Source of the DNA: Planctomycetota bacterium
GTDB taxonomy: Bacteria > Planctomycetota > Planctomycetia > Gemmatales > Gemmataceae
Length of the DNA: 32,140 nt
Direction of reading: 5' to 3'
Assembly: GCA_016200155.1 (NCBI GenBank)
Contig: JACQFG010000310.1
Coordinates: 1 to 32,140 of the forward strand
Positions 9,610 to 28,414 of this stretch are shown piece by piece. A program made the position numbers and the translations under genes. A model generated the notes under the pieces. The model saw only the letters and a program-made list of their open reading frames with translations. It made no database searches and was not told where the DNA came from. Position 1 is the stretch's first letter. Each line of letters opens with the position of its first letter.

Positions 9610-9665
9610 GTAGAACGGAATTTATTCCGTTCGGGGCAGCGAGAACGGAATGAATTCCGTTCTAC
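9610..9665 (+). promoter_or_regulatory. Two tandem 20-22-bp palindromes (GAACGGAAT-N2-ATTCCGTTC), centres 30 bp apart; candidate operator pair or alternative hairpins
   Basis: GAACGGAAT TT ATTCCGTTC lies at 9613..9632 and AGAACGGAAT GA ATTCCGTTCT at 9642..9663. The outer GTAGAACGGAAT (9610..) can also pair with ATTCCGTTCTAC (..9665). The element ends 81 nt upstream of the ATG at 9746. Confidence 0.5.
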
Positions 9666-9745
9666 AACCTGGGCAGTCGAAGCAAACTGAGACATTACCT
9701 GGCCCTGCCTTTTTTTCCGGAACGACGCTCCAGGAGTACGCAACC

Positions 9746-12700
9746 ATGGAACAACTTGGTTCTCGCAAATCGCTCGTCGCAATGGCGCTTTTTTCCATTG
9801 GCTTCAGCGCGCTCGCGCCGTTGGTTGTGATTCCAGCAGGGGAGCGGAAGGGGCGTCCGGCGGATGACGTCAAGACCGAGGCGATCGTGCGCCAACGCTA
9901 CGCCATGGACCCGCCCCATCACTCCAAGGATCCGGCCGTCAAGATCGACTACGACATTGTCTACGTACGCGCGCCGCGCAATGCGTTCGTTTATCCCGAC
10001 GTCGGCACACCCACGCTCGTGGAACCCGGCGCCGATTTGATGCTGCTGCATCCCGATGGCAGTGAGGAGCTACTGGTCGAAGGCGGCAAACGCGGTTCGG
10101 TCGCCGATCCGTTCGTATCCTTTGACGGCAAGTCGGTTTACTATGCCTTCTTCTACGCCAATCACGGCGCCGACATCTACAAGATCCACGTACCGACGCG
10201 GAAAATCGTCCGTCTGACACACGACGGCGGTCAACCAGCGCCCGGAACACGCGGAGCGAACTACGCGGTGCACCAGGATTCGCAGGTCCATCTAATGACC
10301 ATGATGGGGCATCATCCGTCGGTGCGCGACGTCATCTACAACACCGGCCCCTGTCCCGTGCCAGGCAGCAAGGTGGTCTTCACAAGCAATCGCCATGGCT
10401 TCGTGCCGCGCATCGGCAGCTTCAGCTCGCATGCATTTCAGCTGACCGCAATGGACGATGACGGCCGCAACGTGGAAACGATCGGGCACTTGAATCTCGG
10501 TTGCGCGCTTCATCCGGTCATTCTGAAGGATGGCCGAATCATGTTCAGCTCGCTGGAGAACCAGGGAGTGCGCAGCACGCTGCACTGGTCGCTGTGGACC
10601 ATCCGTCCGGACGGCTCGCACTGGGACCCGCTGGTGAGCGATTTCGGCTGGGGCCTGCCGTCGTCGTTCCACTTCCAGACGCAGCGCAGCGATGGCCGCG
10701 TCGTGGCGGAGTTCTATTACAACGTCAACCAGGCGGGCTTTGGGACCTACGCTCAGTTTCCTGTCGCCGCGCCGAAGGGGACGCCGTTCTTCGGTCCGGG
10801 CGATCCCGATTCGCCGCGCAATCAGCCGTTGCGCATGCTTGCCGGAGGTGTCAAGGCGTTCCAGCTTCCGTTCAGTCCACACGGACTGGACATGCTGACG
10901 CCGTTCGCAAACGATGACGACAACCCGAGCACGCGTTCGGATCCGAAAGACCCGAAGTCGCCGAAGGTCGGCCGGGTGACGCATCCGTGCGGTGCACCGG
11001 ACAACCACGTGCTGACGGTGTGGGCGCCCGATCTCGATGTGAGCCGTGACGGCATCACCGGCGGCGTGCGGCGCGTGGCGAGCGACACCGGCATCTACCT
11101 GATCAAGGCCGGCGCGCCGGTCTATGAACCCGGCCAGATGCTGCTGATCAAGAACGATCCGAAATATCACGAGCAATGGCCGCGCCCGCTCGTGCCCTAC
11201 AAGCGTATTCACGGCATCGACGAGCCACAACGCTTGCCGCTGGTCGTCAACGACGGCAAACAGTCGCCGTACTTGCCCGAGGGAACGCCGTACGGTCTGA
11301 TCGGAACCTCCAGCCTGTACAAGCGCGAAAGCGCCACGGCGGGTAGTGTGCCGGACGGTAGCGTGACTGCCGTCACGCCAGCCAAGCGCGGACGGTACGG
11401 AAACAATCTGCGCGGCTGGGTTGACCAGGGCGCTGACGCCGGCATCTATGAGAACAGTGAAATCCACGCCATCCGGATCGTTTTGCAAGAGCCGAACGTT
11501 CGCGAAGATCAATGGCGTTTCTTCAGCCACGCTCATGAACGGATGCGCATCCTTGGCGAAATCCCCGTGCGCCATTTTGATCGTAGACCTCACGCTCCGC
11601 GTGAGGAAAAGCATCACGCGGAGCGTGATGCCTACGGTGGCCAACCGTTCGATCCCGACGGCAATCCGGACACCAGCTTCCTGGCAAAGATCCCCGCCGA
11701 TCATTCGTTCACGTTCCAAACGCTGGATAAGCATGGCCTCGTGCTCAATATGTCGCAGACGTGGCACCAGGTCCGTCCGGGCGAGGTTCGCAACGATTGC
11801 GGCGGTTGCCACGCCCACAGCCAGAAGCCGACCCTCTTTGAGCACACGGCGGCCGCCAAGTCGGACTACAAGATTTTCGATCTGACCAAGTCGACCCCGC
11901 TCATCACAGCCAAGGGGCACGACCAGTCGGGCAAGCAATGGGATGTCAAGGACGAGACGGGGCTGCGTTTTGAAAAGAATGTCAAGGACGTCGAATACTG
12001 GCGCGACGTGCGTCCCATCCTGCAGCGAAGTTGTGCCGCCTGCCACACCAAGACCGCGAAAGAACCGGCGGGCGGCCTGGTGCTCGACGACGACGAGAAG
12101 ATAGCCAGTGACGGTTATCGACAGCCGCGCGGCGTGCCGCGCACCTACCAAGAGCTGGCGCTCAACCCGCGTTACGTGAAAGAGCTGCAAGCGCGTTCGA
12201 GCATGTTGACCTGGCGCCTGTTCGGTCGAAGAATGGACGGCCATCCCGACGCGGCGCCGTTTACCACGAGCGGCAAGACGCCCGCCAAGCCGTTGAAGCT
12301 GACGCCCATGCCGCCACCCGAAGCAGTCGCGGGCACTTACGTCGGACCGGACAGCAAGAAAATCAAGGTTGCAGCGCTCTCCGACGAGGACCGCCGCACG
12401 CTGATCCGCTGGATCGACCTGGGCTGCTCGATCGACCTGCGTTTCGATCCGCAGCGCCCTGATCCGCGCACCAGTCCCTTCGCGGATCGAACGTTGCCGA
12501 CTTTGACCGTCGCCCTTCCGCGCGCCGGCGCCAACGGGGAACCGTTGACGCGCATCGTCGTCGGCATGGCGGACGCGGCCAGCGGGTTGGACATGTCCAG
12601 CTTCAGCGTGATTGCCGACTTCGACATCGACGGCCAGTCGGCGGGGCGTGAACTGGCATCCTACTTTCGGCCAACCTCGCCCGGCGTCTGGGAAATGCGC

Positions 12701-12805
12701 TTGAAATCGCCGCTGGCTGAGTTGGCGGGCGGCAAGCTAACGATTCAGGTCGCCGATCACGATCGCAATGTCGCGCGCATCGAAAGGACTTTTTCTATCA
12801 AATAA
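9746..12805 (+). CDS. Large secreted TolB/PD40-like beta-propeller protein with two C-terminal c-type haem motifs; possibly HzsA-related family
   Basis: ATG at 9746 follows AGGAG with a 9-nt spacer and gives the signal peptide MEQLGSRKSLVAMALFSIGFSALAPLVV. PD40-like segments include DPFVSFDGKSVYYAF and FSSLENQG. CGGCH lies at 11798..11812 and CAACH at 12032..12046. The track start at 9650 lies inside the palindrome. Confidence 0.8.
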   Translation: MEQLGSRKSLVAMALFSIGFSALAPLVVIPAGERKGRPADDVKTEAIVRQRYAMDPPHHSKDPAVKIDYDIVYVRAPRNAFVYPDVGTPTLVEPGADLMLLHPDGSEELLVEGGKRGSVADPFVSFDGKSVYYAFFYANHGADIYKIHVPTRKIVRLTHDGGQPAPGTRGANYAVHQDSQVHLMTMMGHHPSVRDVIYNTGPCPVPGSKVVFTSNRHGFVPRIGSFSSHAFQLTAMDDDGRNVETIGHLNLGCALHPVILKDGRIMFSSLENQGVRSTLHWSLWTIRPDGSHWDPLVSDFGWGLPSSFHFQTQRSDGRVVAEFYYNVNQAGFGTYAQFPVAAPKGTPFFGPGDPDSPRNQPLRMLAGGVKAFQLPFSPHGLDMLTPFANDDDNPSTRSDPKDPKSPKVGRVTHPCGAPDNHVLTVWAPDLDVSRDGITGGVRRVASDTGIYLIKAGAPVYEPGQMLLIKNDPKYHEQWPRPLVPYKRIHGIDEPQRLPLVVNDGKQSPYLPEGTPYGLIGTSSLYKRESATAGSVPDGSVTAVTPAKRGRYGNNLRGWVDQGADAGIYENSEIHAIRIVLQEPNVREDQWRFFSHAHERMRILGEIPVRHFDRRPHAPREEKHHAERDAYGGQPFDPDGNPDTSFLAKIPADHSFTFQTLDKHGLVLNMSQTWHQVRPGEVRNDCGGCHAHSQKPTLFEHTAAAKSDYKIFDLTKSTPLITAKGHDQSGKQWDVKDETGLRFEKNVKDVEYWRDVRPILQRSCAACHTKTAKEPAGGLVLDDDEKIASDGYRQPRGVPRTYQELALNPRYVKELQARSSMLTWRLFGRRMDGHPDAAPFTTSGKTPAKPLKLTPMPPPEAVAGTYVGPDSKKIKVAALSDEDRRTLIRWIDLGCSIDLRFDPQRPDPRTSPFADRTLPTLTVALPRAGANGEPLTRIVVGMADAASGLDMSSFSVIADFDIDGQSAGRELASYFRPTSPGVWEMRLKSPLAELAGGKLTIQVADHDRNVARIERTFSIK

Positions 12806-12913: not shown

Positions 12914-14254
12914 TTATTTTTCAGTCGTCGCGGCAACGACCCGGAAACCGACGCAGTCGCTGCGGTAAACCGGCACATGATAATCGCGAAAGGCACAGCG
13001 ACAGAATTTAGGCTGAGTGCTCCAGGCGCCGCCGCGTTGGACTCGTTCCTTGCCGGTGGTCGGACCTTGCGGATCCTGCTTGGGACTCTTGGTGTAGTAG
13101 CTTTCGTCATACCAATCCGAGCACCATTCCCAGACGTTGCCGTGCATGTCATGAAGGCCGAAGTCGTTGGCCTGGAAGCTGCCCACCGGGGACGTGAAGG
13201 GAAAGCCGTCGTTCCACTTCGTGGCCCAGAACGCATCCTTCCATTTCAATTGGAGCGTGGCGTCGGCAAGGTTGGCGACCGCTTGCAAATCGGCGTCCCT
13301 GGCGCCGGCGCTGAAGCGTGTCTTCGTGCCCGCCCGGCACGCGTATTCCCACTCGGCTTCGGTGGGCAAACGGTAAATCCTGCCTTCCTTTTTCGATAGC
13401 CAGGCACAGAATGCCATTGCATCGTTCCAGGAAACCACGGTCACGGGATGATCGTCGGTCTGGGTGAAATGCAGTTTCTTCCAGGTGAATTCCGGTTTTT
13501 GCACGAACTCCTTGCCATCGAAGGCCTTGCCCCCCTTGCCGTCCTTTTCCGCTTCCGTCTGGTAGTTCGTAGCCTTGATGAATGCCTTGAATTGACCGAC
13601 CGTCACCTCGTGCTTGGCAAGATAGAAATGTTGCGTGATCTCGACTTCATGCGGCAGCTCTTCGTCAAGGCGGTCCTCCTCACCTTTCGGCGAGCCCATC
13701 ACGAACTTGCCTGCGGGAATCAACAGCAGACTCATGTCAAGGGAGTTGACCTGTTTCCGCGGCACGAAGACAACCTCCCCCTCGAACCGGTCCACCAGGG
13801 CGAACCCCGTCGGCGGACCTTTGTAGGGAAAGCGCGTGACGCGGTGCTCTTGATTCCACACAACCCGCAGGACCTTCTCTGTAATCCGGGGAACGTCGAA
13901 CCGGATCGAGCCGGCTTCGCCCTTGGAGGGATGCCCCTGCACGGCCAAAATCATCTGCATGCTCCAGTCGATCTTTTCTAGCTTCAGAGCCCTGGCCAGC
14001 GCGGCCTCGGCTTCCTTCTGGGCCGCGGGATCCTTCGCGGAGTCCGGCTTGGCCGAATGCGCGACCAGCTCCTGAGCACTGCGGATCACCACGCCGCTGT
14101 CATCTTTCTTGAGCCGAATCAAATTCGGTTCCGTGTCGCTGGCGCTGGCAAGAATCTTCAGCTCCTTGGCGTCCTTCGGCGGCTGCCCGTGCAGTGACAT
14201 GGCTGCCAGGGCAACGACAACGCACACACCAGGAAAACTGAGGCCACGAGACAT
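12914..14254 (-). CDS. Formylglycine-generating-enzyme (SUMF1/FGE-sulfatase, PF03781-type) domain protein with an uncharacterised N-terminal domain
   Basis: Start at 14254 follows GGAGGTGGAG. A signal peptide is present. The C-terminal half carries LIPAGKFVMGSP, HPVTVVSWNDAMAFCAWLS, YRLPTEAEWEYACRAG, HGNVWEWCSDWY, RVQRGGAW and VGFRVV. Confidence 0.85.
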   Translation of the reverse strand: MSRGLSFPGVCVVVALAAMSLHGQPPKDAKELKILASASDTEPNLIRLKKDDSGVVIRSAQELVAHSAKPDSAKDPAAQKEAEAALARALKLEKIDWSMQMILAVQGHPSKGEAGSIRFDVPRITEKVLRVVWNQEHRVTRFPYKGPPTGFALVDRFEGEVVFVPRKQVNSLDMSLLLIPAGKFVMGSPKGEEDRLDEELPHEVEITQHFYLAKHEVTVGQFKAFIKATNYQTEAEKDGKGGKAFDGKEFVQKPEFTWKKLHFTQTDDHPVTVVSWNDAMAFCAWLSKKEGRIYRLPTEAEWEYACRAGTKTRFSAGARDADLQAVANLADATLQLKWKDAFWATKWNDGFPFTSPVGSFQANDFGLHDMHGNVWEWCSDWYDESYYTKSPKQDPQGPTTGKERVQRGGAWSTQPKFCRCAFRDYHVPVYRSDCVGFRVVAATTEK

Positions 14255-14286
14255 GACTCCACCTCCAGTGCTCAAATCAGATTTCT

Positions 14287-14350
14287 CGCAAAGGCGCAAA
14301 GGACGCAAAGAAATACACAATGCCCTCTTTGCGTCCTTTGCGCCTTTGCG
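14287..14350. repeat. Perfect 24-bp inverted repeat built from GCGCAAAG-type octamers (CGCAAAGGCGCAAAGGACGCAAAG / CTTTGCGTCCTTTGCGCCTTTGCG), 16-nt loop
   Basis: Arms at 14287..14310 and 14327..14350. The repeat sits between the stop of the 166-aa gene (14363) and the start of the FGE gene (14254). It is the same family as 29945..30038. Confidence 0.9.
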
Positions 14351-19303: not shown

Positions 19304-19855
19304 CTATCGGGGTGCTAGGCCTCGATGCCACCAACTGAAGAGATGAAGCCCCTCATGGCATTCTATACAAACCGCGCTCAGATCATCCAGCAGTTCATGC
19401 CCTACACGGTCGTATGTCTCGTGATGGGCCTGAACTGCGGGGCGCACCTCGCAATAGACGCAGACCCCGCCCGCCGCTTCAATTACTCTTCGACGCAGAG
19501 CCTGCCATTCAGGACTTGTGAGATACTGCCCATACCGCCGCCACCACTCAATCGACCGCCCCTGATTGAGTTGATTGGTCACGGCCGCGTTGATGGGACC
19601 GAAGACGGCGCGAAACCGTTGTTCCGCTTCATCGTTCCAAGGAGGAACACTTTCTGGCGGAACCCCATTAAGAACGCTGTAAGGCAACTCGCTACCCCAA
19701 CGTCGCCCGCAGTCCGGGCATTGCGCGCGAAGGCGAATCCGGCCACGCTTGTCTACTTTGTGGCGAACCTCCCGACGAGGACATTTGCACGGCAGCGCCG
19801 TGGCAACAATCTCCTTGTGGCGATGGAAGTCATATGACGGTCTTGCGATGTCCAT
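19304..19855 (-). CDS. HNH-type endonuclease-like protein (phage-associated YL(T/S)xxW...C..C...HH.tY.r.G.E...L..C..CH..H family) with N-terminal zinc ribbon
   Basis: YLTSPEWQALRRRVIEAAGGVCVYCEVRPAVQAHHETYDRVGHELLDDLSAVCIECHEGLH is the pattern seen in small phage HNH proteins. CKC...CPDC occurs at the N-terminus. Confidence 0.65.
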   Translation of the reverse strand: MDIARPSYDFHRHKEIVATALPCKCPRREVRHKVDKRGRIRLRAQCPDCGRRWGSELPYSVLNGVPPESVPPWNDEAEQRFRAVFGPINAAVTNQLNQGRSIEWWRRYGQYLTSPEWQALRRRVIEAAGGVCVYCEVRPAVQAHHETYDRVGHELLDDLSAVCIECHEGLHLFSWWHRGLAPR

Positions 19856-19969: not shown

Positions 19970-21271
19970 CTAGCGTTGCTTCTCCGCGGCAAAATAGGCC
20001 CGGTACTGCTGTTCGCGATCCATATGCACCAGCGGCGGCACCCGATCAACAGCATTGTCGCCGCCCACCAACTCGAACGAGATCCCCAACGGCGTGCGGC
20101 CGGGGCGCTTGAAGCGGCCGCCTTCGTAGTCGCCGCCCCAGTAGTCGCCGATCGCTATCATGTCGAAGCGCGTGAACGCTTTCTTCTGCGGATCGTAAGT
20201 CAGCACACCGCTGAGGCGAGAGTCATAGCCGCGCTGCGATTTTGCGGGGTCGGCGTCGGTTGTCAACAGGGCAGTCCCCTGCAAGCGCATCCGCAACGTC
20301 GGGGAAACCTGTTCGACGGTCAGCGTCAGCGTGCCGGTGCGTATCTGCTCGAGACTCCAGGAACCCGGCAAGCCGAAGGTGCCGTTGACCAGATGGTAGC
20401 GGAAGAGGCGTTTCTGGATGGCATCGGGGACGGGGAACGTGGCTCCCTTTTTTGGATCGGCCGGGATTAGCGATTTCCATTCCGCCTCGGTGAGCCAAAC
20501 GTTGAAGTGCGCCGGCTCCGTGTAGATGGGATTCCAGTCGGGATAAAGGACCTTGTCCTTGAGGTCCGCCTTGGTGATCGTGGCGAGTTCGCCGCGCTCG
20601 TTCTTTTTCAGGTTGCGGGCAAAGGACCTCAGGATCAATCCTCCTACCGGCGGCGTGCAGCGGTCGGCCTCGGGCGGCTTGACTTCCTTGCCTGCAGGCA
20701 AAGCCTTGCGTTCTTCATCCGTCAGCAACTTCCAGTTCTTGAGGCCCGTGTTCAGCGCCTCGCGGGCGCCGCCGCCGCCGTTGCCGCCGGCGAGTTTCTT
20801 GCCGCTCGGCGTCGTGAGCACAAAGCAATTTCCGCCGCTGGGATGGCGATTCGCCTTGATGAAATCACCGTCCTGCCCATCGGTCTTGGCCAGCCAGTAG
20901 AGCATGTGACCGTTGATCGCCACCGCCACGCAATTCTCTTTCACCAGCGGTGCAACTTGATTGACGCCGAACCGGCCGTCTTGCACCCCCTGGTTTCAGC
21001 ACGTCCCGAGCGGTTCGCCGGCCATGTACCAGAGCAACAGGGGCTTGCCTTCCTCGGCTGCCTTTTTCCGTGCCGCATAGATGTTGGAACTCGGCATCCA
21101 GGGCACCTGCATCCACTGCGAATCGTCAGGCCCCGGCGCGATGAGACGCTGGAGCTTCTCGAGCGAATCCGCCGCCGGCTTCTTCGTCGGTTGCGCCGCC
21201 GTTTGCTGGACGCCGACCATGAGGCCCACGACCAGCGCGAGCGACCTTTTGATCCGTTTGATTGCATTCAT
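19970..21271 (-). CDS. Candidate selenoprotein: secreted thioredoxin-like (Thioredoxin_7-like N-terminus) protein with in-frame UGA (Sec?) at codon 92 plus a large C-terminal domain of unknown function
   Basis: Track ORFs 20996..21280 and 19970..20986 share one frame and are separated only by TGA (20996..20998) and 3 codons. ATG at 21271 has AAGGAG 8 nt upstream. A signal peptide is present. The motif is ...EEGKPLLLWYMAGEPLGTC-U-NQG... The downstream ORF has no ATG or SD of its own. Confidence 0.6.
20944..20998 (-). other. UGA codon plus candidate bacterial SECIS stem-loop
   Basis: The RNA after UGA is AACCAGGGGGUGCAAGACGGCCGGUUCGGCGUCAAUCAAGUUGCACCGCUGG. Stems: CCAG/CUGG, GGUGCAA/UUGCACC and GACG(G)CC/GGCGUC. 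The apical loop GGUUC starts about 25 nt from the U of UGA. Confidence 0.5.
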
Positions 21272-21306
21272 TGTCATCACTCCTTGTTATTTGATCTCTG
21301 GCGTGG

Positions 21307-23667: not shown

Positions 23668-24846
23668 CTAAACACTCGGCTTTCCGGTGAGTCGCACGTA
23701 ATATCCCTCACCCAACGTCGACTTCCCTTTGGGCCGTCTCCTGCTCATCATGGGCTTCGGTGTGCTCTTGTCTTTGTCGAGCACTTCAATCTCGCCACTC
23801 GCCTCCAGGTGAAGCAGAGCCTGTTTGTACGCAGATTGGCTTAGCAAATCAGTCGGGCGCACGACCCAGTCATTGAAAAATAGGTCTACGCATCGAGGAC
23901 CCGTCACAAGCGCGTTGAGAATTTCTCTTTTCACATCAAAGTGAGGATCGAAGAGTGCGACATAATCCGTCCGCCCGGCTTGGACGAACTGCAAAGCGCC
24001 CTCACCTTCTTCCGAGTGACCGCGTTTCCACATGATGTCCTTCATGATCTTGAAGCCAAGCTTGTGATTGGTCGCGTGAATCAGATAGTGACTGGTCTTC
24101 TGCTTTTCTTCGGATTCGACCCGGAATGGGATTGAAAATTCAACGCGCATATCTTTGCGCAACGCGAGCCGATAACACTCCAAGATCAGTAGTTCTCGTT
24201 TATCAGCCTCGTCCGTTGTCTGCAAGGCACTGAAAAGTTCTTCCGCCCGCTGCCTTGAGCCGAGCAGTTCCACTAACACGTCGCTGAGCTTGTCCAACCC
24301 GGCGATTCTGCGCACGCCGTCGATGTTGAAGAAAATAAACGCTTCAGACGATTTGCACGCCATCACGGCTTTGATGGTTTCGAAGGACGTGCCCGAGACT
24401 CCACACGGATCAACGAACAAGAACGTAGGCGGTAGATTGCCGTTGGATTGTTTCAACAGCTTTTTCACTCCGTCGGCGAAAGTGCAGCAGTCGGTGTTTG
24501 GCTGGCGGATATGTGGGTTGGCCTTCCCGAAATCCACGACGGCTTTCTGCAGGGGCAGATACAGAATTGGATCGACCTCGATGAAAACTGCCGAGACCTT
24601 CTTGGAGAAGGTGTCGTTGGAAGCGATAAGCTTGAGCGCCCGAAGAGGAGAGCCGTCGAAAACCTCTCCCGTGTCGGCTTTCGTATATGTTCCGCGCCCA
24701 GCAAAGCCATCAACGTACTGAAGGTCCTTATTCGCCGTCCCGACAATCCGAAAATATGGCGTAAGGTAGGTAGCGAGAATCTCGTGTTTGACCTGCGTCT
24801 GCGCGCGGTAGTCGTCAAAGTGTTCTCGGTCGTTGTCTCTCCCCAT
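23668..24846 (-). CDS. tcmP: Three-Cys-motif partner protein TcmP-like (TIGR04474-type), methyltransferase-fold-like motifs
   Basis: The N-terminus (...TQVKHEILATYLTPYFRIVG...YVDGFAGRGTY) is typical of TcmP. FAGRG (motif I-like) lies about 100 aa before FVDPCG (motif IV-like). The RBS GAGGAA overlaps the stop of the upstream DUF5131 gene. About 47% GC. Confidence 0.6.
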   Translation of the reverse strand: MGRDNDREHFDDYRAQTQVKHEILATYLTPYFRIVGTANKDLQYVDGFAGRGTYTKADTGEVFDGSPLRALKLIASNDTFSKKVSAVFIEVDPILYLPLQKAVVDFGKANPHIRQPNTDCCTFADGVKKLLKQSNGNLPPTFLFVDPCGVSGTSFETIKAVMACKSSEAFIFFNIDGVRRIAGLDKLSDVLVELLGSRQRAEELFSALQTTDEADKRELLILECYRLALRKDMRVEFSIPFRVESEEKQKTSHYLIHATNHKLGFKIMKDIMWKRGHSEEGEGALQFVQAGRTDYVALFDPHFDVKREILNALVTGPRCVDLFFNDWVVRPTDLLSQSAYKQALLHLEASGEIEVLDKDKSTPKPMMSRRRPKGKSTLGEGYYVRLTGKPSV

Positions 24847-24853
24847 GGTTTCC

Positions 24854-25651
24854 TCATTTCACCGCCAACTGCGCGAAGTCGTCAATCAAGTTCAAGCGAA
24901 TTCGCTGCGAAGGCGCGGATGCACTCACTCGCTCAGGAAGGCCGTTATACGTTTGTCCCGCGAGCGTTCGCCCCGCCTGTTTCTTCCGCACGCCACCCCA
25001 TTGTTTGAAGAAGAACGGAATGCTGGCGGCGTGGCACTGGTCGCGAACGCTGAGTACCCATTCAGGTTGCATCGTGCGGGCGCCGGGACCGCTCTCCCCG
25101 CCGACAATGACCCAGTTGATTCCTTTAAGGTTCAATGTGCCGAGATCTTCCAGCAAAGGTTCGACTGAAAGAAAGCGAACAGTCGCCGGTGCACGCCGTA
25201 GATTTTCAATCCGTGGTAGACCGTGGCGTTGATTCTCGACACTCACCCCCCACCATATGTGCGGTAAGTTGGCGGCAAATCGAAGACTCCCTCGAAGTAG
25301 ATCCCGCAGTCGCACCGACCGCTTCGTCAAAACCTGAAACGTGTGCCAGGTTGCCAACTCCATGACGCGGGCAACGTCGCGAATGTAGTCGTCTGGCACG
25401 TCCTCATGGAAAAGGTCGCTCATGCTATTGACGAAAATCATGCGCGAGCTGGCCCAACGTAGAGGCTCGCGAAGTTTTTCGGGCACCAGGCGCAGGTCGA
25501 AGCCTTGCTCATAGGGGTGGCCGGGCACGCCGCGAAATCGTTCTGCAAAAGTTTCGGCATAGCAATGAGCGCATCCGGGGCTAATTTTGGTGCAACCGCG
25601 GACCGGATTCCAAGTCGCATCGGTCCATTCGATGGAGGAATGCTCGCTCAT
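24854..25651 (-). CDS. DUF5131 / phage Gp37-Gp68 family protein (PF07505-type) with three-Cys motif
   Basis: MSEHSSIEWTDATWNPVRGCTKISPGCAHCYAETFAERF is the canonical family N-terminus (IEWTD.TWNP..GC...S.GC..CYA). GGGAG lies 5 nt upstream of the ATG at 25651. Confidence 0.8.
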   Translation of the reverse strand: MSEHSSIEWTDATWNPVRGCTKISPGCAHCYAETFAERFRGVPGHPYEQGFDLRLVPEKLREPLRWASSRMIFVNSMSDLFHEDVPDDYIRDVARVMELATWHTFQVLTKRSVRLRDLLRGSLRFAANLPHIWWGVSVENQRHGLPRIENLRRAPATVRFLSVEPLLEDLGTLNLKGINWVIVGGESGPGARTMQPEWVLSVRDQCHAASIPFFFKQWGGVRKKQAGRTLAGQTYNGLPERVSASAPSQRIRLNLIDDFAQLAVK

Positions 25652-25667
25652 CTACGCTCCCGAAAAT

Positions 25668-25687
25668 TAATGAACATGCGTTCATTA
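25668..25687. promoter_or_regulatory. Perfect 20-bp palindrome TAATGAAC-ATGC-GTTCATTA (GAAC-N4-GTTC core); candidate repressor operator, SOS-box-like
   Basis: Read directly from the sequence. It lies 17 nt upstream of the DUF5131 start codon and overlaps the TATAAT hexamer on the reverse strand. Confidence 0.5.
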
Positions 25688-25712
25688 TAGTAAGAAGCCC
25701 GGTATACTCCAA
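25684..25712 (-). promoter_or_regulatory. Sigma-70-like promoter candidate TTGGAG-17-TATAAT for the DUF5131-TcmP operon
   Basis: The reverse strand has TTGGAG (25712..25707), a 17-nt spacer and a perfect TATAAT (25689..25684). Confidence 0.4.
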
Positions 25713-25755
25713 CACAAATATCGTTGATTTCTATGAGCGCGTAAAGTGCAAAGGA

Positions 25756-26739
25756 TCACGCCGATGCCGCCTGCTCGCGCAACCTGCCATAATGCGCCGC
25801 GCAGCGGTCCCTCCAGGCTTGCTGTTCCGCTGGGCTGGCGTTGTTGCCGGGCCAGAGCAGCGGTTCGCGGTCGGGGAGCCAGTAGCGGAAGGGTGTGCTG
25901 CGGTAGCCGGTGCCGGAGCAGCAGATCAGTCCTTGCTGGGTGGCGCGTTTCAACCAGCGCAACAACGTCGAGCGGTCCGGCGCGCCTTCCTCGACGGGCC
26001 AGCGCTGCAACATGTCCTGCTGGGTCAGCTTCTCGGTGGCGTTGGCCAGGACCTCGTGCACCTCGGGCCAGGTCTGCACGACGGGGGTGCCGACGGCGTC
26101 GGTGCGCACCAGGTAGTCGGTCCCGTCGCCATTGAGTTCGATGATGAGGTGGCGCGGCGTTTCGACGTAGCGTGAGTAGGCGCAGATGCGGCGGCGCCGG
26201 TCGCGGCTGCGCAGGCGGCGACAGCAACTCATCTCCATGACGATGTCCGCGAAACCCGACAGGGCGCCGGAGCCGCGCGCGGTCTGGCCGTCGCCGCGTT
26301 TGTCCTTGGCGGGATGGTGCACGAGCCACACGGCGGGGCCAAGGTTCGCCAGAGCCTGGAGCGGCAGCAAGCAGTCGAGCAACTTCGGAGCGCAGGATTC
26401 GGCATAACCGGGGAGCAACGCGGCCAGAGCGTCGATCACCACCAGGTCCAGGGCTTCCTGGCGATGCAGTGCTTCCAGGCTGGCGATCAGGGAAAACCAT
26501 TGGGCGTCGGTTGGACGAGCGCCTTGGAAAGGGCGACACAGGAACTGGACGTTCTGCCCAAGGGCGAGTTGCCGGCAGCGTGCGGCCCAGTCGGATTCAG
26601 CTTCTTCGGAGACAACGATGGCCCGGCCTGGCGCAACTGCCAAGCCCGCCAGCTGTCCACCCTGGGCCAATCGGCCCAACAGGTGGGACGTGCAAGTGGC
26701 AGATGGAATCATTACGTCCATGCGCCTGGCGTAAATCAC
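25756..26739 (-). CDS. RepA/AAA_25-like RecA-fold ATPase remnant fused to a C-terminal winged-helix domain; Walker A apparently missing or degenerate
   Basis: Walker B-like DLVVIDALAALLPG and WLVHHPAKDKRG...ARGSGALSGFADIVMEM are typical of AAA_25. No GxxGxGK(S/T) motif is present; the expected position reads PSATCTSHLL. The start is GTG and the frame is closed by TGA 3 codons upstream. The C-terminus (STLLRWLKRATQQGLI) is wHTH-like. Confidence 0.55.
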   Translation of the reverse strand: MIYARRMDVMIPSATCTSHLLGRLAQGGQLAGLAVAPGRAIVVSEEAESDWAARCRQLALGQNVQFLCRPFQGARPTDAQWFSLIASLEALHRQEALDLVVIDALAALLPGYAESCAPKLLDCLLPLQALANLGPAVWLVHHPAKDKRGDGQTARGSGALSGFADIVMEMSCCRRLRSRDRRRRICAYSRYVETPRHLIIELNGDGTDYLVRTDAVGTPVVQTWPEVHEVLANATEKLTQQDMLQRWPVEEGAPDRSTLLRWLKRATQQGLICCSGTGYRSTPFRYWLPDREPLLWPGNNASPAEQQAWRDRCAAHYGRLREQAASA

Positions 26740-26856
26740 GTAACATCAGTGTTCGGGTCGCCATGCTACCCCAATGCGAAGCCAGCCATTGCAGAAGAAT
26801 TGCAGAAGTCCAAACACCTGTTTTCGTAACGTCTATTTGGATATGAAGTTACGAAG

Positions 26857-26927
26857 CTGGGGTACTAGGATTCGAACCTAGACAAACTGATCCAGAGTCA
26901 GTTGTGCTACCGTTACACTATACCCCA
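26857..26927 (-). tRNA. tRNA-Gln (anticodon CUG)
   Basis: Manual cloverleaf. Acceptor UGGGGUA/UACCCCA. D stem GUGU/GCAC with a GG loop. Anticodon stem ACUGA/UCAGU with loop CU-CUG-GA. T stem CUAGG/CCUAG with loop UUCGAAU. Discriminator G. CCA is not encoded. Confidence 0.9.
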
Positions 26928-27043: not shown

Positions 27044-28414
27044 TCAGCCGGCGAACAAGGCGTTGATCGGGCGGCCGCCGAGGCCGGCGATGGCGAACGG
27101 GCGGCCGATGGCGTCGCGGACCTGCGGAATCAAGTTGTCCGGGGCAACGATGCCCAGGCCGCGGTAGATCGTGGCGAAGACGTCGCCGATGTTGACTTTG
27201 TCGCGGGCCACGTCCATGCCGTCGGCCGTCGTGGCGCCGTAGGCCTGGCCGCCGCGGATGAGACCGCCGCCGACCACGACCGACCAGCTCCGGGCCCAGT
27301 GATCGCGGCCGTTGTTCTGGTTGATGCGCGGGGTGCGGCCGAACTCGCCCATCCACACGATGACCGTGCTCTCCAGCATGCGGCGTTCCGCGAGTTCCGA
27401 CACCAGCGTGCCCATGGCGTTGTCGAGCGTCGGCTGCAAGCGGGTGCTGTGGGCGTCGAAGGTCTGGTTGTGGGTGTCCCAGCCGCCGAGGTTGATTTCG
27501 ACCGCGGAGACGCCGGCTTCGACGAGTCGGCGTGCCATGATGGCGGAGCGGCCGAAGTTGTTGTTGCCGTAGGCGTCGAGCGTGGTTTTCTTTTCGTCCT
27601 TCAGATCGAAGACCTTGCCTTCCTTGGAGGCGACGAGACTGAAGCCCTTGTAGTAGATGTCGCGGTGCGCCTTGGAGGCATCGGCGAACTTGGCGCGCTC
27701 GCGCAGCTTGGCGTCGCGCTCGCTCTGGCTGGTGTAGGCCATGTTGGCGCCGACGTGCGGCACGCGGCCGTACATGAACTGATCTTCGAGTTCATAGAAG
27801 AGGCGCTGACGACGGCGGACGCGGTCTTCGAGGTCGGTGCCCTGGCCGAGCGATTGCGGGGCGCGGATGTTTTCCGGCGGCGTGCCGGGGTTCTGGACGG
27901 TGAAGGGGGCGTAATTCATGCCGAGGAAGCCCGGGCCGTCCGCAGCGCCGCCGACGGAGATGTAGTTGGGCAGCGAGATATCTCGGTAGTTGGCGAGCTT
28001 GGGGACCTCGTGAGCGGCAACCGCACCGATCGACGGGAACGCGATCGCGGGGTTCGGAGTGTACGAGGTGTGCATCAACTGCCGGCCGCGATTGTGATCG
28101 CCTTCGGAGGTCTGCAGGGAACGAACGATGGAGAGGTGGCGCATCTGCTGAGCGACCTTGGGCATGTGCTGCGAGATGCGGACGCCGGGAGCGGTGGTCT
28201 GGATTTCGGTGAACGGACCGCCGGTGGCGGCGCCGGGCTTGAGGTCCCAGATGTCGATGGAAGCGGGGCCGCCGCCCATCCACAGGATGATGACGCTCTT
28301 GTTGGCCTGGCGCAGTTGCTGGGCGTTCGCATGAATGGTGCGGGCGAACTCAATGCCCGGCAATGCCAGGGCCGAATAGGCCGCCACGTGCTTGAGAAAA
28401 TGCCGACGATCCAT
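27044..28414 (-). CDS. DUF1501 domain protein (sulfatase/alkaline-phosphatase-like superfamily) with Tat signal
   Basis: MDRRHFLKHVAAYSALALPG is a twin-arginine leader. VIILWMGGGPASIDIWDLKP, GDHNRG, WDTH and GRDHW are canonical DUF1501 blocks. Confidence 0.9.
   Translation of the reverse strand: MDRRHFLKHVAAYSALALPGIEFARTIHANAQQLRQANKSVIILWMGGGPASIDIWDLKPGAATGGPFTEIQTTAPGVRISQHMPKVAQQMRHLSIVRSLQTSEGDHNRGRQLMHTSYTPNPAIAFPSIGAVAAHEVPKLANYRDISLPNYISVGGAADGPGFLGMNYAPFTVQNPGTPPENIRAPQSLGQGTDLEDRVRRRQRLFYELEDQFMYGRVPHVGANMAYTSQSERDAKLRERAKFADASKAHRDIYYKGFSLVASKEGKVFDLKDEKKTTLDAYGNNNFGRSAIMARRLVEAGVSAVEINLGGWDTHNQTFDAHSTRLQPTLDNAMGTLVSELAERRMLESTVIVWMGEFGRTPRINQNNGRDHWARSWSVVVGGGLIRGGQAYGATTADGMDVARDKVNIGDVFATIYRGLGIVAPDNLIPQVRDAIGRPFAIAGLGGRPINALFAG

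Follow-up and report, generated by a model that had tools for sequence, protein, structure and literature searches.

A probable selenoprotein gene with a thioredoxin fold, split in two by gene calling, in a planctomycete contig

Introduction

Is the UGA codon that stands between two open reading frames (ORFs) on the minus strand of a planctomycete contig the end of one gene, or the selenocysteine (Sec, U) codon inside a longer one? The question is raised at positions 19970 to 21271 of contig JACQFG010000310.1 (assembly GCA_016200155.1, family Gemmataceae), which was analysed over its whole length of 32,140 bp and is referred to below as the window. A sequence-only reading had proposed that a candidate Cys-Sec selenoprotein is split here by standard ORF calling. 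This interpretation is supported by the comparative sequence analysis reported below, according to which 19970..21271(-) is very probably one genuine selenoprotein gene and not two genes.

The bacterial selenocysteine insertion sequence (SECIS), as described for Escherichia coli fdhF and in the bSECISearch criteria, is a stem-loop 3' of the UGA with G and U in its apical loop. Cys forms usually outnumber Sec forms in selenoprotein families, and this is the yardstick by which a family is called nearly all-Sec in what follows.

Results

One reading frame interrupted by a single UGA

The upstream ORF (21280..20996, minus strand) terminates in ...PLLLWYMAGEPLGTC and is closed by TGA 20998..20996. 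Only three codons (AAC CAG GGG) separate this TGA from GTG 20986, at which a 338-residue ORF (20986..19970) begins in the same frame, just as the sequence-only reading had observed. The 91-residue piece encoded from ATG 21271, here called the N-piece, opens with a signal-peptide-like stretch, continues with ...WMQVPWMPSSNIYAARKKAAEEGKPLLLWYMAGEPLGTC and has ...GEPLGTC as its last residues. The Shine-Dalgarno sequence and signal-peptide-like N-terminus claimed for this piece can both be read in the DNA (AAGGAG at 21285..21280 and MNAIKRIKRSLALVVGLMVGVQQTAA, respectively). Conceptual translation of the single frame predicts a precursor of 433 residues with U at residue 92 (Table 1). Its signal peptide suggests that the precursor is exported, and most relatives reconstructed by read-through start with hydrophobic N-termini comparable to that of the window gene.

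TGA terminates nine of the 17 other ORFs in the window and is the commonest ordinary stop there, so that the genetic code is standard and any recoding must be specific to the site. When single TGA codons flanked by two long stretches with coding-like base composition at third codon positions (GC3) were sought throughout the window, TGA 20998..20996 was the only strong case, and one weak off-frame pair passed too.

Conservation of the UGA and of both flanks

DNA of relatives was retrieved by means of conserved motifs in the C-terminal part of the protein, a criterion that is blind to the content of the UGA site. Frame walking placed TGA at the homologous codon of 73 out of 79 genome loci, and tblastn did so for three more that have downstream frame breaks. 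It was likewise present in all 69 metagenome loci having enough upstream sequence and in seven of seven further contigs. Neither TAA nor TAG was ever seen at the site in these roughly 150 loci, which belong to Planctomycetota, Verrucomicrobiota and others. The codons other than TGA were Gly GGA (locus L001 at L001:572-574, protein P0001), Asp GAC (L028) and Cys TGC (L167, protein P0256).

Conservation of the protein on both flanks of the UGA persists to clades that are about 30% identical to the window protein, as exemplified by GKPILLWEMDGHPLGCT-U-NNGVAGRALAF, DKPLVIFTAADGSPLGRT-U-GACTSNRARWFTG and GKPLFLWAGSGGAPAAGC-U-TAGRGGRAP in divergent clades, and within the clade of the window gene the codon differences on either side of the TGA lie mainly at third positions. 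In total, 115 related loci could be rebuilt as uninterrupted read-through ORFs of 380-550 residues with the same architecture. One might suppose that a thioredoxin-like gene which once contained Cys has decayed to a pseudogene by a nonsense mutation, since a Cys codon is only one base away (TGC or TGT to TGA). However, the same mutation would need to have been fixed in about 150 loci of at least two phyla, purifying selection acts on both flanks and the 115 reconstructed ORFs contain neither other stops nor frameshifts, which leaves this explanation with a close to negligible probability.

The annotation of databases follows the split. The joined sequence, searched against 5.8 billion proteins, gave 240 matches that were nearly all 305-341 residues long and covered the downstream piece only, and the called starts of these downstream relatives spread over about 35 codons. 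An exhaustive phmmer search with the 91-residue N-piece against 1.84 billion cluster representatives found 497 proteins at E <= 0.001. Among the best 150 of these, the alignment reaches the last residues of the protein in 149, and those proteins therefore all stop at the UGA site; the sole exception, P0256, reads on through ...HPLGCT-C-PGG... with the codon TGC. In nearly all relatives the gene callers place a break at the UGA, and both halves are labelled 'hypothetical protein' by NCBI and JGI.

Two separately translated genes, forming a conserved and translationally coupled pair of a secreted 91-residue peptide and a 338-residue protein starting at GTG 20986, would be the literal reading of these annotations, since every gene caller annotates two genes, TGA serves as an ordinary stop in this genome and the G-rich sequence CAGGGG stands immediately before the GTG. 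Against such a pair, the GTG itself is not conserved: the aligned codon is CTC, CTG, GTC, TAC, ATT, CTT or GTT in relatives, so that there is no conserved downstream start, in keeping with the scatter of the called starts. The supposed spacer and the residues before the start are conserved as protein (e.g. NQGVQDGR, NNGVAGRALAF), the stop is always TGA over roughly 150 loci, the downstream piece is without a signal peptide and the Cys homologue reads straight through. Furthermore, the boundary would cut one thioredoxin fold between strand beta1 and helix alpha1. The homologues are thus neither pairs of independent genes nor proteins ending at the UGA, and a two-gene arrangement appears extremely improbable.

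Some relatives are of interest in their own right. Three diverged paralogues belonging to different motif clades (CU, CxU, UxxC and others) were found in each of three single metagenome-assembled genomes (MAGs), namely L002/L040/L043 in SHZY01, L023/L035/L037 in JBBDNU01 and L027/L042/L069 in CAWEKV01. In P0101 the C-terminal piece is followed without a break by the N-piece of another copy in tandem. Planctomycete-type members L001, L022, L024 and L061 come from MAGs labelled 'uncultured Alcaligenaceae' (binchicken and related co-assemblies), which is probably an error of taxonomy or binning.

A conserved hairpin downstream of the UGA

A long stem-loop had been described immediately 3' of the UGA by the sequence-only reading. 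Its two lower helices, CCAG/CUGG and GGUGCAA/UUGCACC, are indeed present in the minimum-energy fold, but the upper stem is not the contiguous GACGCC/GGCGUC that had been claimed, as it contains a bulged G. Likewise, the apical loop had been given as GGUUC at about 25 nt from the UGA; this loop is obtained if the closing G-C pair is opened, and is otherwise GUU, starting at 23 nt. Of the relatives, only L002, the nearest one, shares the lower helices, which have no fixed columns in other members of the clade, so the extended structure is probably lineage-specific.

The upper hairpin is a family feature. Sequences of the main clade and the CU clade (n=45) align without gaps from the TGA onwards and share a helix of 6 bp, in which columns 16-21 pair with columns 27-32 around the loop CGUGC with its invariant G. 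In this alignment 93% of the cells are paired and five of the six pairs have changed on both sides. None of 500 shuffles reached the observed values, and pairing dropped to 39-57% when the partner was slid by 1-3 columns. Some of the compensations are non-synonymous on both arms, as where Ala-GCG/Ala-GCC is replaced by Val-GUG/Thr-ACC, and such changes could not be produced by coding conservation alone. In the clade of the window gene (18 sequences) the hairpin spans nt 19-36, with 82% of the cells paired, three of seven pairs compensated and 25-61% pairing in the slid controls; in members with Phe (UUC) the register is displaced by one position and the loop is GUU, and in those with Ser (UCG) the loop is GGUC. 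Distant members carry a hairpin at the same place that is built from unrelated stems (CGCGAAA/UUUCGCG, AACAGCCGG/CCGGUUGUU, ACUCCG/CGGAGU and GAGGGAC/GUCCCUC) with the loops GUU, GUC or GGUC.

An ad hoc bSECIS-like test was modelled on the published criteria and demanded at least 6 bp, at most one bulge, a loop of 3-7 nt containing GU and a distance of 9-44 nt past the UGA. It was passed by 96 of 134 distinct family sites (72%), as compared to 38 of 951 other TGAs in the window (4%) and 4.9% of 4000 TGAs in related loci. The window site is among those that pass, with 7 bp, the GUU loop and a distance of 23 nt.

The hairpin is thus kept, with compensatory changes, in orthologues that have the TGA, and has disappeared from the Cys and Asp variants (L167 and L028, respectively), which indicates that it travels with the TGA. 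The Gly-Arg pair that follows Sec is almost always encoded by GGC-CGG or GGC-CGU (20972..20977(-) in the window), the very bases that form the top of the hairpin, and the Cys form L167 uses GGG-CGA. Since the invariant Arg codon lies in the hairpin loop, constraints on protein and RNA overlap here, and to judge from this codon usage the Gly-Arg sequence itself seems to be constrained by the RNA element.

A thioredoxin fold with the proposed Sec in its active-site turn

The full-length Gly variant P0001, which is 74% identical to the window protein, was modelled by AlphaFold2, giving a mean predicted local distance difference test score (pLDDT) of 87.9 and a predicted TM score (pTM) of 0.86. 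The model has the order b1-a1-b2-b3-b4-a3 followed by a large beta-rich domain; strand beta1 (PLLLWYM) is encoded upstream of the UGA and everything from helix alpha1 onwards downstream of it. Foldseek comparison with the PDB returned AGR3/AGR2, DsbH, DsbD-gamma and ERp19, all of them thioredoxin folds, with probabilities of 0.9-1.0 and target TM scores of 0.44-0.59.

Sequence profiles point in the same direction. The joined window protein has no Pfam or NCBIfam match even at E <= 1, and among 25 relatives Thioredoxin_7 (PF13899) was matched by 16 and DUF255 (PF03190) by five, in all cases below threshold (E >= 0.001, best 0.0011). A profile of 25 reconstructed N-terminal domains matched one solved structure, PDB 3ira (E = 0.0064), a DUF255/thioredoxin-like domain, and in the profile alignment Sec is matched with the Cys that opens its CHWC motif. 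The thioredoxin-like placement of the UGA residue, previously suggested from the sequence layout, is therefore upheld by both profile and fold comparison. By model and alignments together, the N-terminal domain has a Thioredoxin_7-like thioredoxin fold, in which Sec probably stands in for the first Cys of CxxC.

The surroundings of Sec vary. In 107 distinct relatives the motif is CxU in 47, CU, as in the window, in 36, UxxC in 18 and CxxU in two, and four have no Cys within four residues. The only residues invariant in the family are Sec and an Arg 7-8 residues later. The window motif is C-U with no Cys at +3, and the UxxC clade keeps the classical CxxC spacing; the loop that holds the site is of low confidence in the model of P0001.

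The C-terminal domain and its fusions

The remaining part of the protein forms a beta-rich domain with the conserved motifs PPxGGL, WLTEAEWKSL, RxHL, TRFD..GD.WG and RPGRxPLG (alignment A1). It gave no PDB sequence match at E <= 10, no Pfam match and no significant Foldseek match against the PDB. LptD, START and lipocalin-like folds were considered and rejected, as only low-probability structural matches to them were obtained.

In a few relatives the Sec/thioredoxin-like module stands at the C-terminal, presumably extracytoplasmic end of a larger protein. P0224 and P0353 begin with regions 2 and 4 of an extracytoplasmic function (ECF) sigma-70 factor and a membrane segment, P0256 (L167:8-2530, the sole Cys form) with a Ser/Thr kinase and a membrane segment, and P0236 with FG-GAP repeats. 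The module is placed after the transmembrane segment in the fused relatives. Its partnership with ECF sigma factors and with a Ser/Thr kinase is a hint that it may take part in sensing the redox state of the envelope.

Table 1. Position and basis of the features of the proposed selenoprotein gene in the window
Feature	Position	Strand	Basis or remark
Proposed complete selenoprotein gene	19970..21271	-	ATG 21271..21269, 91 codons, Sec codon, 341 codons, stop TAG 19972..19970
Shine-Dalgarno-like AAGGAG	21280..21285	-	8 nt before ATG 21271; read from sequence, putative function
Predicted Sec-type signal peptide MNAIKRIKRSLALVVGLMVGVQQTAA	21194..21271	-	putative cleavage after TAA, then QP
Thioredoxin-fold domain, about residues 36-185, split by UGA	20717..21166	-	AlphaFold2 model of relative P0001, Foldseek, weak hidden Markov model matches
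Cys91 codon TGC	20999..21001	-	immediately before Sec; candidate resolving residue of a vicinal Cys-Sec pair
In-frame UGA, proposed selenocysteine residue 92	20996..20998	-	about 150 loci have TGA at this site
Upper SECIS-like hairpin GACG(G)CCG-GUU-CGGCGUC	20963..20980	-	begins 15 nt past UGA, apical loop 23 nt past UGA
Lower helices CCAG/CUGG and GGUGCAA/UUGCACC enclosing the upper hairpin	20944..20993	-	minimum-energy fold
C-terminal beta-rich domain, about residues 205-433, about 230 residues	19973..20659	-	alignment A1; high-confidence model

Genomic surroundings

No gene neighbours were conserved across the eleven contigs compared. An AhpC/Redoxin gene and FGE-sulfatase genes adjoin some copies inconsistently, the latter near L160, L162 and L163. 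In the window, a Cys/His-rich ORF of 183 residues (19304..19855(-)) lies directly downstream of the selenoprotein gene; it has CxxC pairs and HH...H, is possibly HNH-nuclease-like, matches DUF7351 weakly and was not seen beside relatives of the gene.

The only tRNA in the window is a tRNA-Gln (26856..26927), and besides it no Rfam family was found in a scan of the whole window. Genes for DUF5131 (phage Gp37/Gp68-like) and AAA_25 proteins and an unassigned 392-residue ORF adjoin this tRNA, and the region 23668..26927(-) may be an integrated mobile element. Otherwise the content is typical of planctomycetes, with a 1051-residue protein that has a hydrazine-synthase-alpha middle domain (9650..12805(+)), an FGE-sulfatase domain protein (12914..14320(-)) and a DUF1501 protein (27044..28414(-)).

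Discussion

Evidence for and against selenocysteine at the UGA

Several observations weigh against Sec insertion at this codon. Neither selA, selB, selC nor selD is present in the 32,140 bp of the window, which is the whole contig, and no Sec machinery gene or, by ARAGORN, tRNA-Sec was found in 0.8 Mb of related loci. All relatives derive from MAGs or metagenomes and none from a cultured isolate. No SECIS model of Rfam matched the whole window at gathering thresholds or positions 20900..21020 at E <= 10, and a covariance model (R1) built from the 45-sequence main-clade hairpin missed the window hairpin with filters off, its best window matches being noise (E >= 0.15). The failure of R1 is attributable to the different spacer and loop in the clade of the window gene and to the low information of a 6-bp model, and is no test against SECIS function. 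Fold energy gave no support either: the window element is no more stable than expected by chance (z = -1.2 relative to dinucleotide shuffles, z = -0.65 relative to synonymous recodings), and family fold energies are barely below those of synonymous recodings (mean z = -0.37, 73 sites). Energy alone does not discriminate in DNA as rich in GC as this.

The Gly variant L001, whose GGA is one base away from TGA, retains the hairpin. An intact hairpin beside a Gly codon suggests either a very recent change or a base or assembly error, and the residue may accordingly be dispensable there or the assembly may be wrong. Finally, the site loop of the P0001 model (residues 82-90) has pLDDT < 50. In mixtures with C-terminal pieces the short N-piece proteins were aligned wrongly by MAFFT, and the resulting alignment depth of one over the N-terminal 90 residues accounts for the poorly modelled active-site loop.

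Some of these observations would fit a UGA that is read through with no Sec system, by near-cognate suppression (Trp, Cys or Arg) or by a lineage-specific reassignment, the hairpin acting as a read-through stimulator only. There is no Sec machinery on the window contig, Gly in one relative and Asp in another mean that the position tolerates other residues, and neither the covariance model nor Rfam made an independent SECIS call. Reassignment is ruled out, however, by the use of TGA as the main ordinary stop in the window. Moreover, the site is the redox-active position of a thioredoxin fold with a Cys homologue, which is a classic signature of Sec, and the distance, size and G/U apical loop of the hairpin fit the bacterial SECIS as described for fdhF and in the bSECISearch criteria. 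Related planctomycetes also possess the machinery: Gemmata obscuriglobus and Isosphaera pallida are both reported to have selA, selB, selC and selD (PMC4807772, main text and Table S8). The lineage is thus capable of decoding Sec, and planctomycete selenoproteins annotated as two genes have been reported as well (PMC4807772). On balance, read-through by other means is very unlikely, and Sec insertion at a UGA within one gene accounts best for the conserved codon, its conserved hairpin and the Cys homologue.

Proposed mechanism and function

On the interpretation as one selenoprotein gene, translation would begin at ATG 21271, and UGA codon 92 would be decoded as selenocysteine by SelB and Sec-tRNA(Sec). 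SelB would be recruited by the hairpin at 20980..20963, 15 nt downstream, and translation would then continue to TAG 19970. The signal peptide would send the 433-residue precursor out of the cytoplasm, where Sec92 could act as the redox-active nucleophile at the position of the attacking Cys of a thioredoxin-fold CxxC. In this clade Sec92 and Cys91 may form a vicinal selenenylsulfide during the redox cycle, in the manner of the GCUG terminus of mammalian thioredoxin reductase, and in other clades the partner Cys would be found at -2, -3 or +3. The C-terminal domain might bind a substrate or partner. Anything said of the function beyond that of an extracytoplasmic selenol-based redox protein is tentative.

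One may speculate further that this Planctomycetota-Verrucomicrobiota family, which is almost exclusively of the Sec form (about 150 Sec forms versus one Cys form seen), is an extracytoplasmic module for sensing redox state or electrophiles and not a housekeeping oxidoreductase. This idea derives from those members in which the module follows a transmembrane segment and is joined to an ECF sigma factor or a Ser/Thr kinase. Under it, a partner Cys that changes its position would imply that the selenol alone is important. We regard it as unlikely, but if it is true, the family would supply the first case of a selenoprotein serving as a sensor domain in bacterial signal transduction.

At present, hundreds of genes in planctomycetes and verrucomicrobia are each annotated as two hypothetical proteins, and a family model would let annotation pipelines join the halves and mark the Sec residue. 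The family is unusual among bacterial selenoproteins in being nearly all-Sec, predicted to be exported and present in several copies per genome, and in that Sec alone is invariant while the partner Cys moves. Its distribution points to substantial selenium use by soil, freshwater and marine members of the Planctomycetota-Verrucomicrobiota group, a group that is not mentioned by name in the searched text of the 2026 review. It also offers a defined handle on the uncharacterised domain of about 230 residues.

Comparison with known systems

The arrangement resembles the bacterial Sec-UGA and SECIS of fdhF and bSECISearch in that the family hairpin of 6-7 bp begins within 12-15 nt of the UGA, inside the coding sequence, and has a small apical loop with conserved G and U at 18-29 nt from the UGA. 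It differs from known bacterial SECIS elements in matching no curated RNA model, and its register and loop vary by clade, with CGUGC at +18, GGUC or GUU at +22/23 and GGUUC at +29.

As for the protein, the fold is that of Thioredoxin_7 and DUF255 (PF13899, PF03190; DsbD-gamma, DsbH, AGR2/3, ERp19 and 3ira), with the signature W..IPW...A...A..EGKP-hhhh followed by the active-site turn. Those proteins are likewise extracytoplasmic, as is predicted for this family. In contrast to them, the family has CU, CxU, UxxC, CxxU or a lone U in place of CxxC, and an extra domain of about 230 residues is present. The VPGUxxT (NF041382/NF041383) and Trx7/PDZ (NF041199) selenoproteins are also of the thioredoxin-7 type with Sec at the active-site turn, and when compared with NCBIfam release 20.0 the models NF041382, NF041383 and NF041199 were weakly matched by seven, four and three of 25 relatives, respectively (best E about 0.001-0.02). 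The window protein itself has no match to these three models, no VPGUxxT motif and no PDZ domain, and differs from both families in its C-terminal domain.

The adjacent Cys-Sec dyad of the window has a likeness in mammalian thioredoxin reductase, which carries a GCUG vicinal Cys-Sec centre, and such a dyad could form an eight-membered selenenylsulfide ring. Bacterial CU families, namely SaoC, HgcA, SaoL and KCU-star, are catalogued in Table 1 of PMC13188914, so that together with thioredoxin reductase the CU motif itself has precedent. Unlike in those proteins, the dyad of the window lies at the active-site turn of a thioredoxin fold and not in a flexible C-terminus or at a metal site; nor is the dyad conserved throughout the family, only Sec being so. 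Table 1 of that inventory (119 families, May 2026), compared by domain or model accession, holds no counterpart of the family. As no Pfam or NCBIfam model matches at threshold either, the family can be called uncatalogued, which agrees with the failure of the sequence-only reading to name one. From these sequence comparisons the mechanism would be ordinary bacterial Sec recoding, and the protein the representative of an uncatalogued family of thioredoxin-fold selenoproteins.

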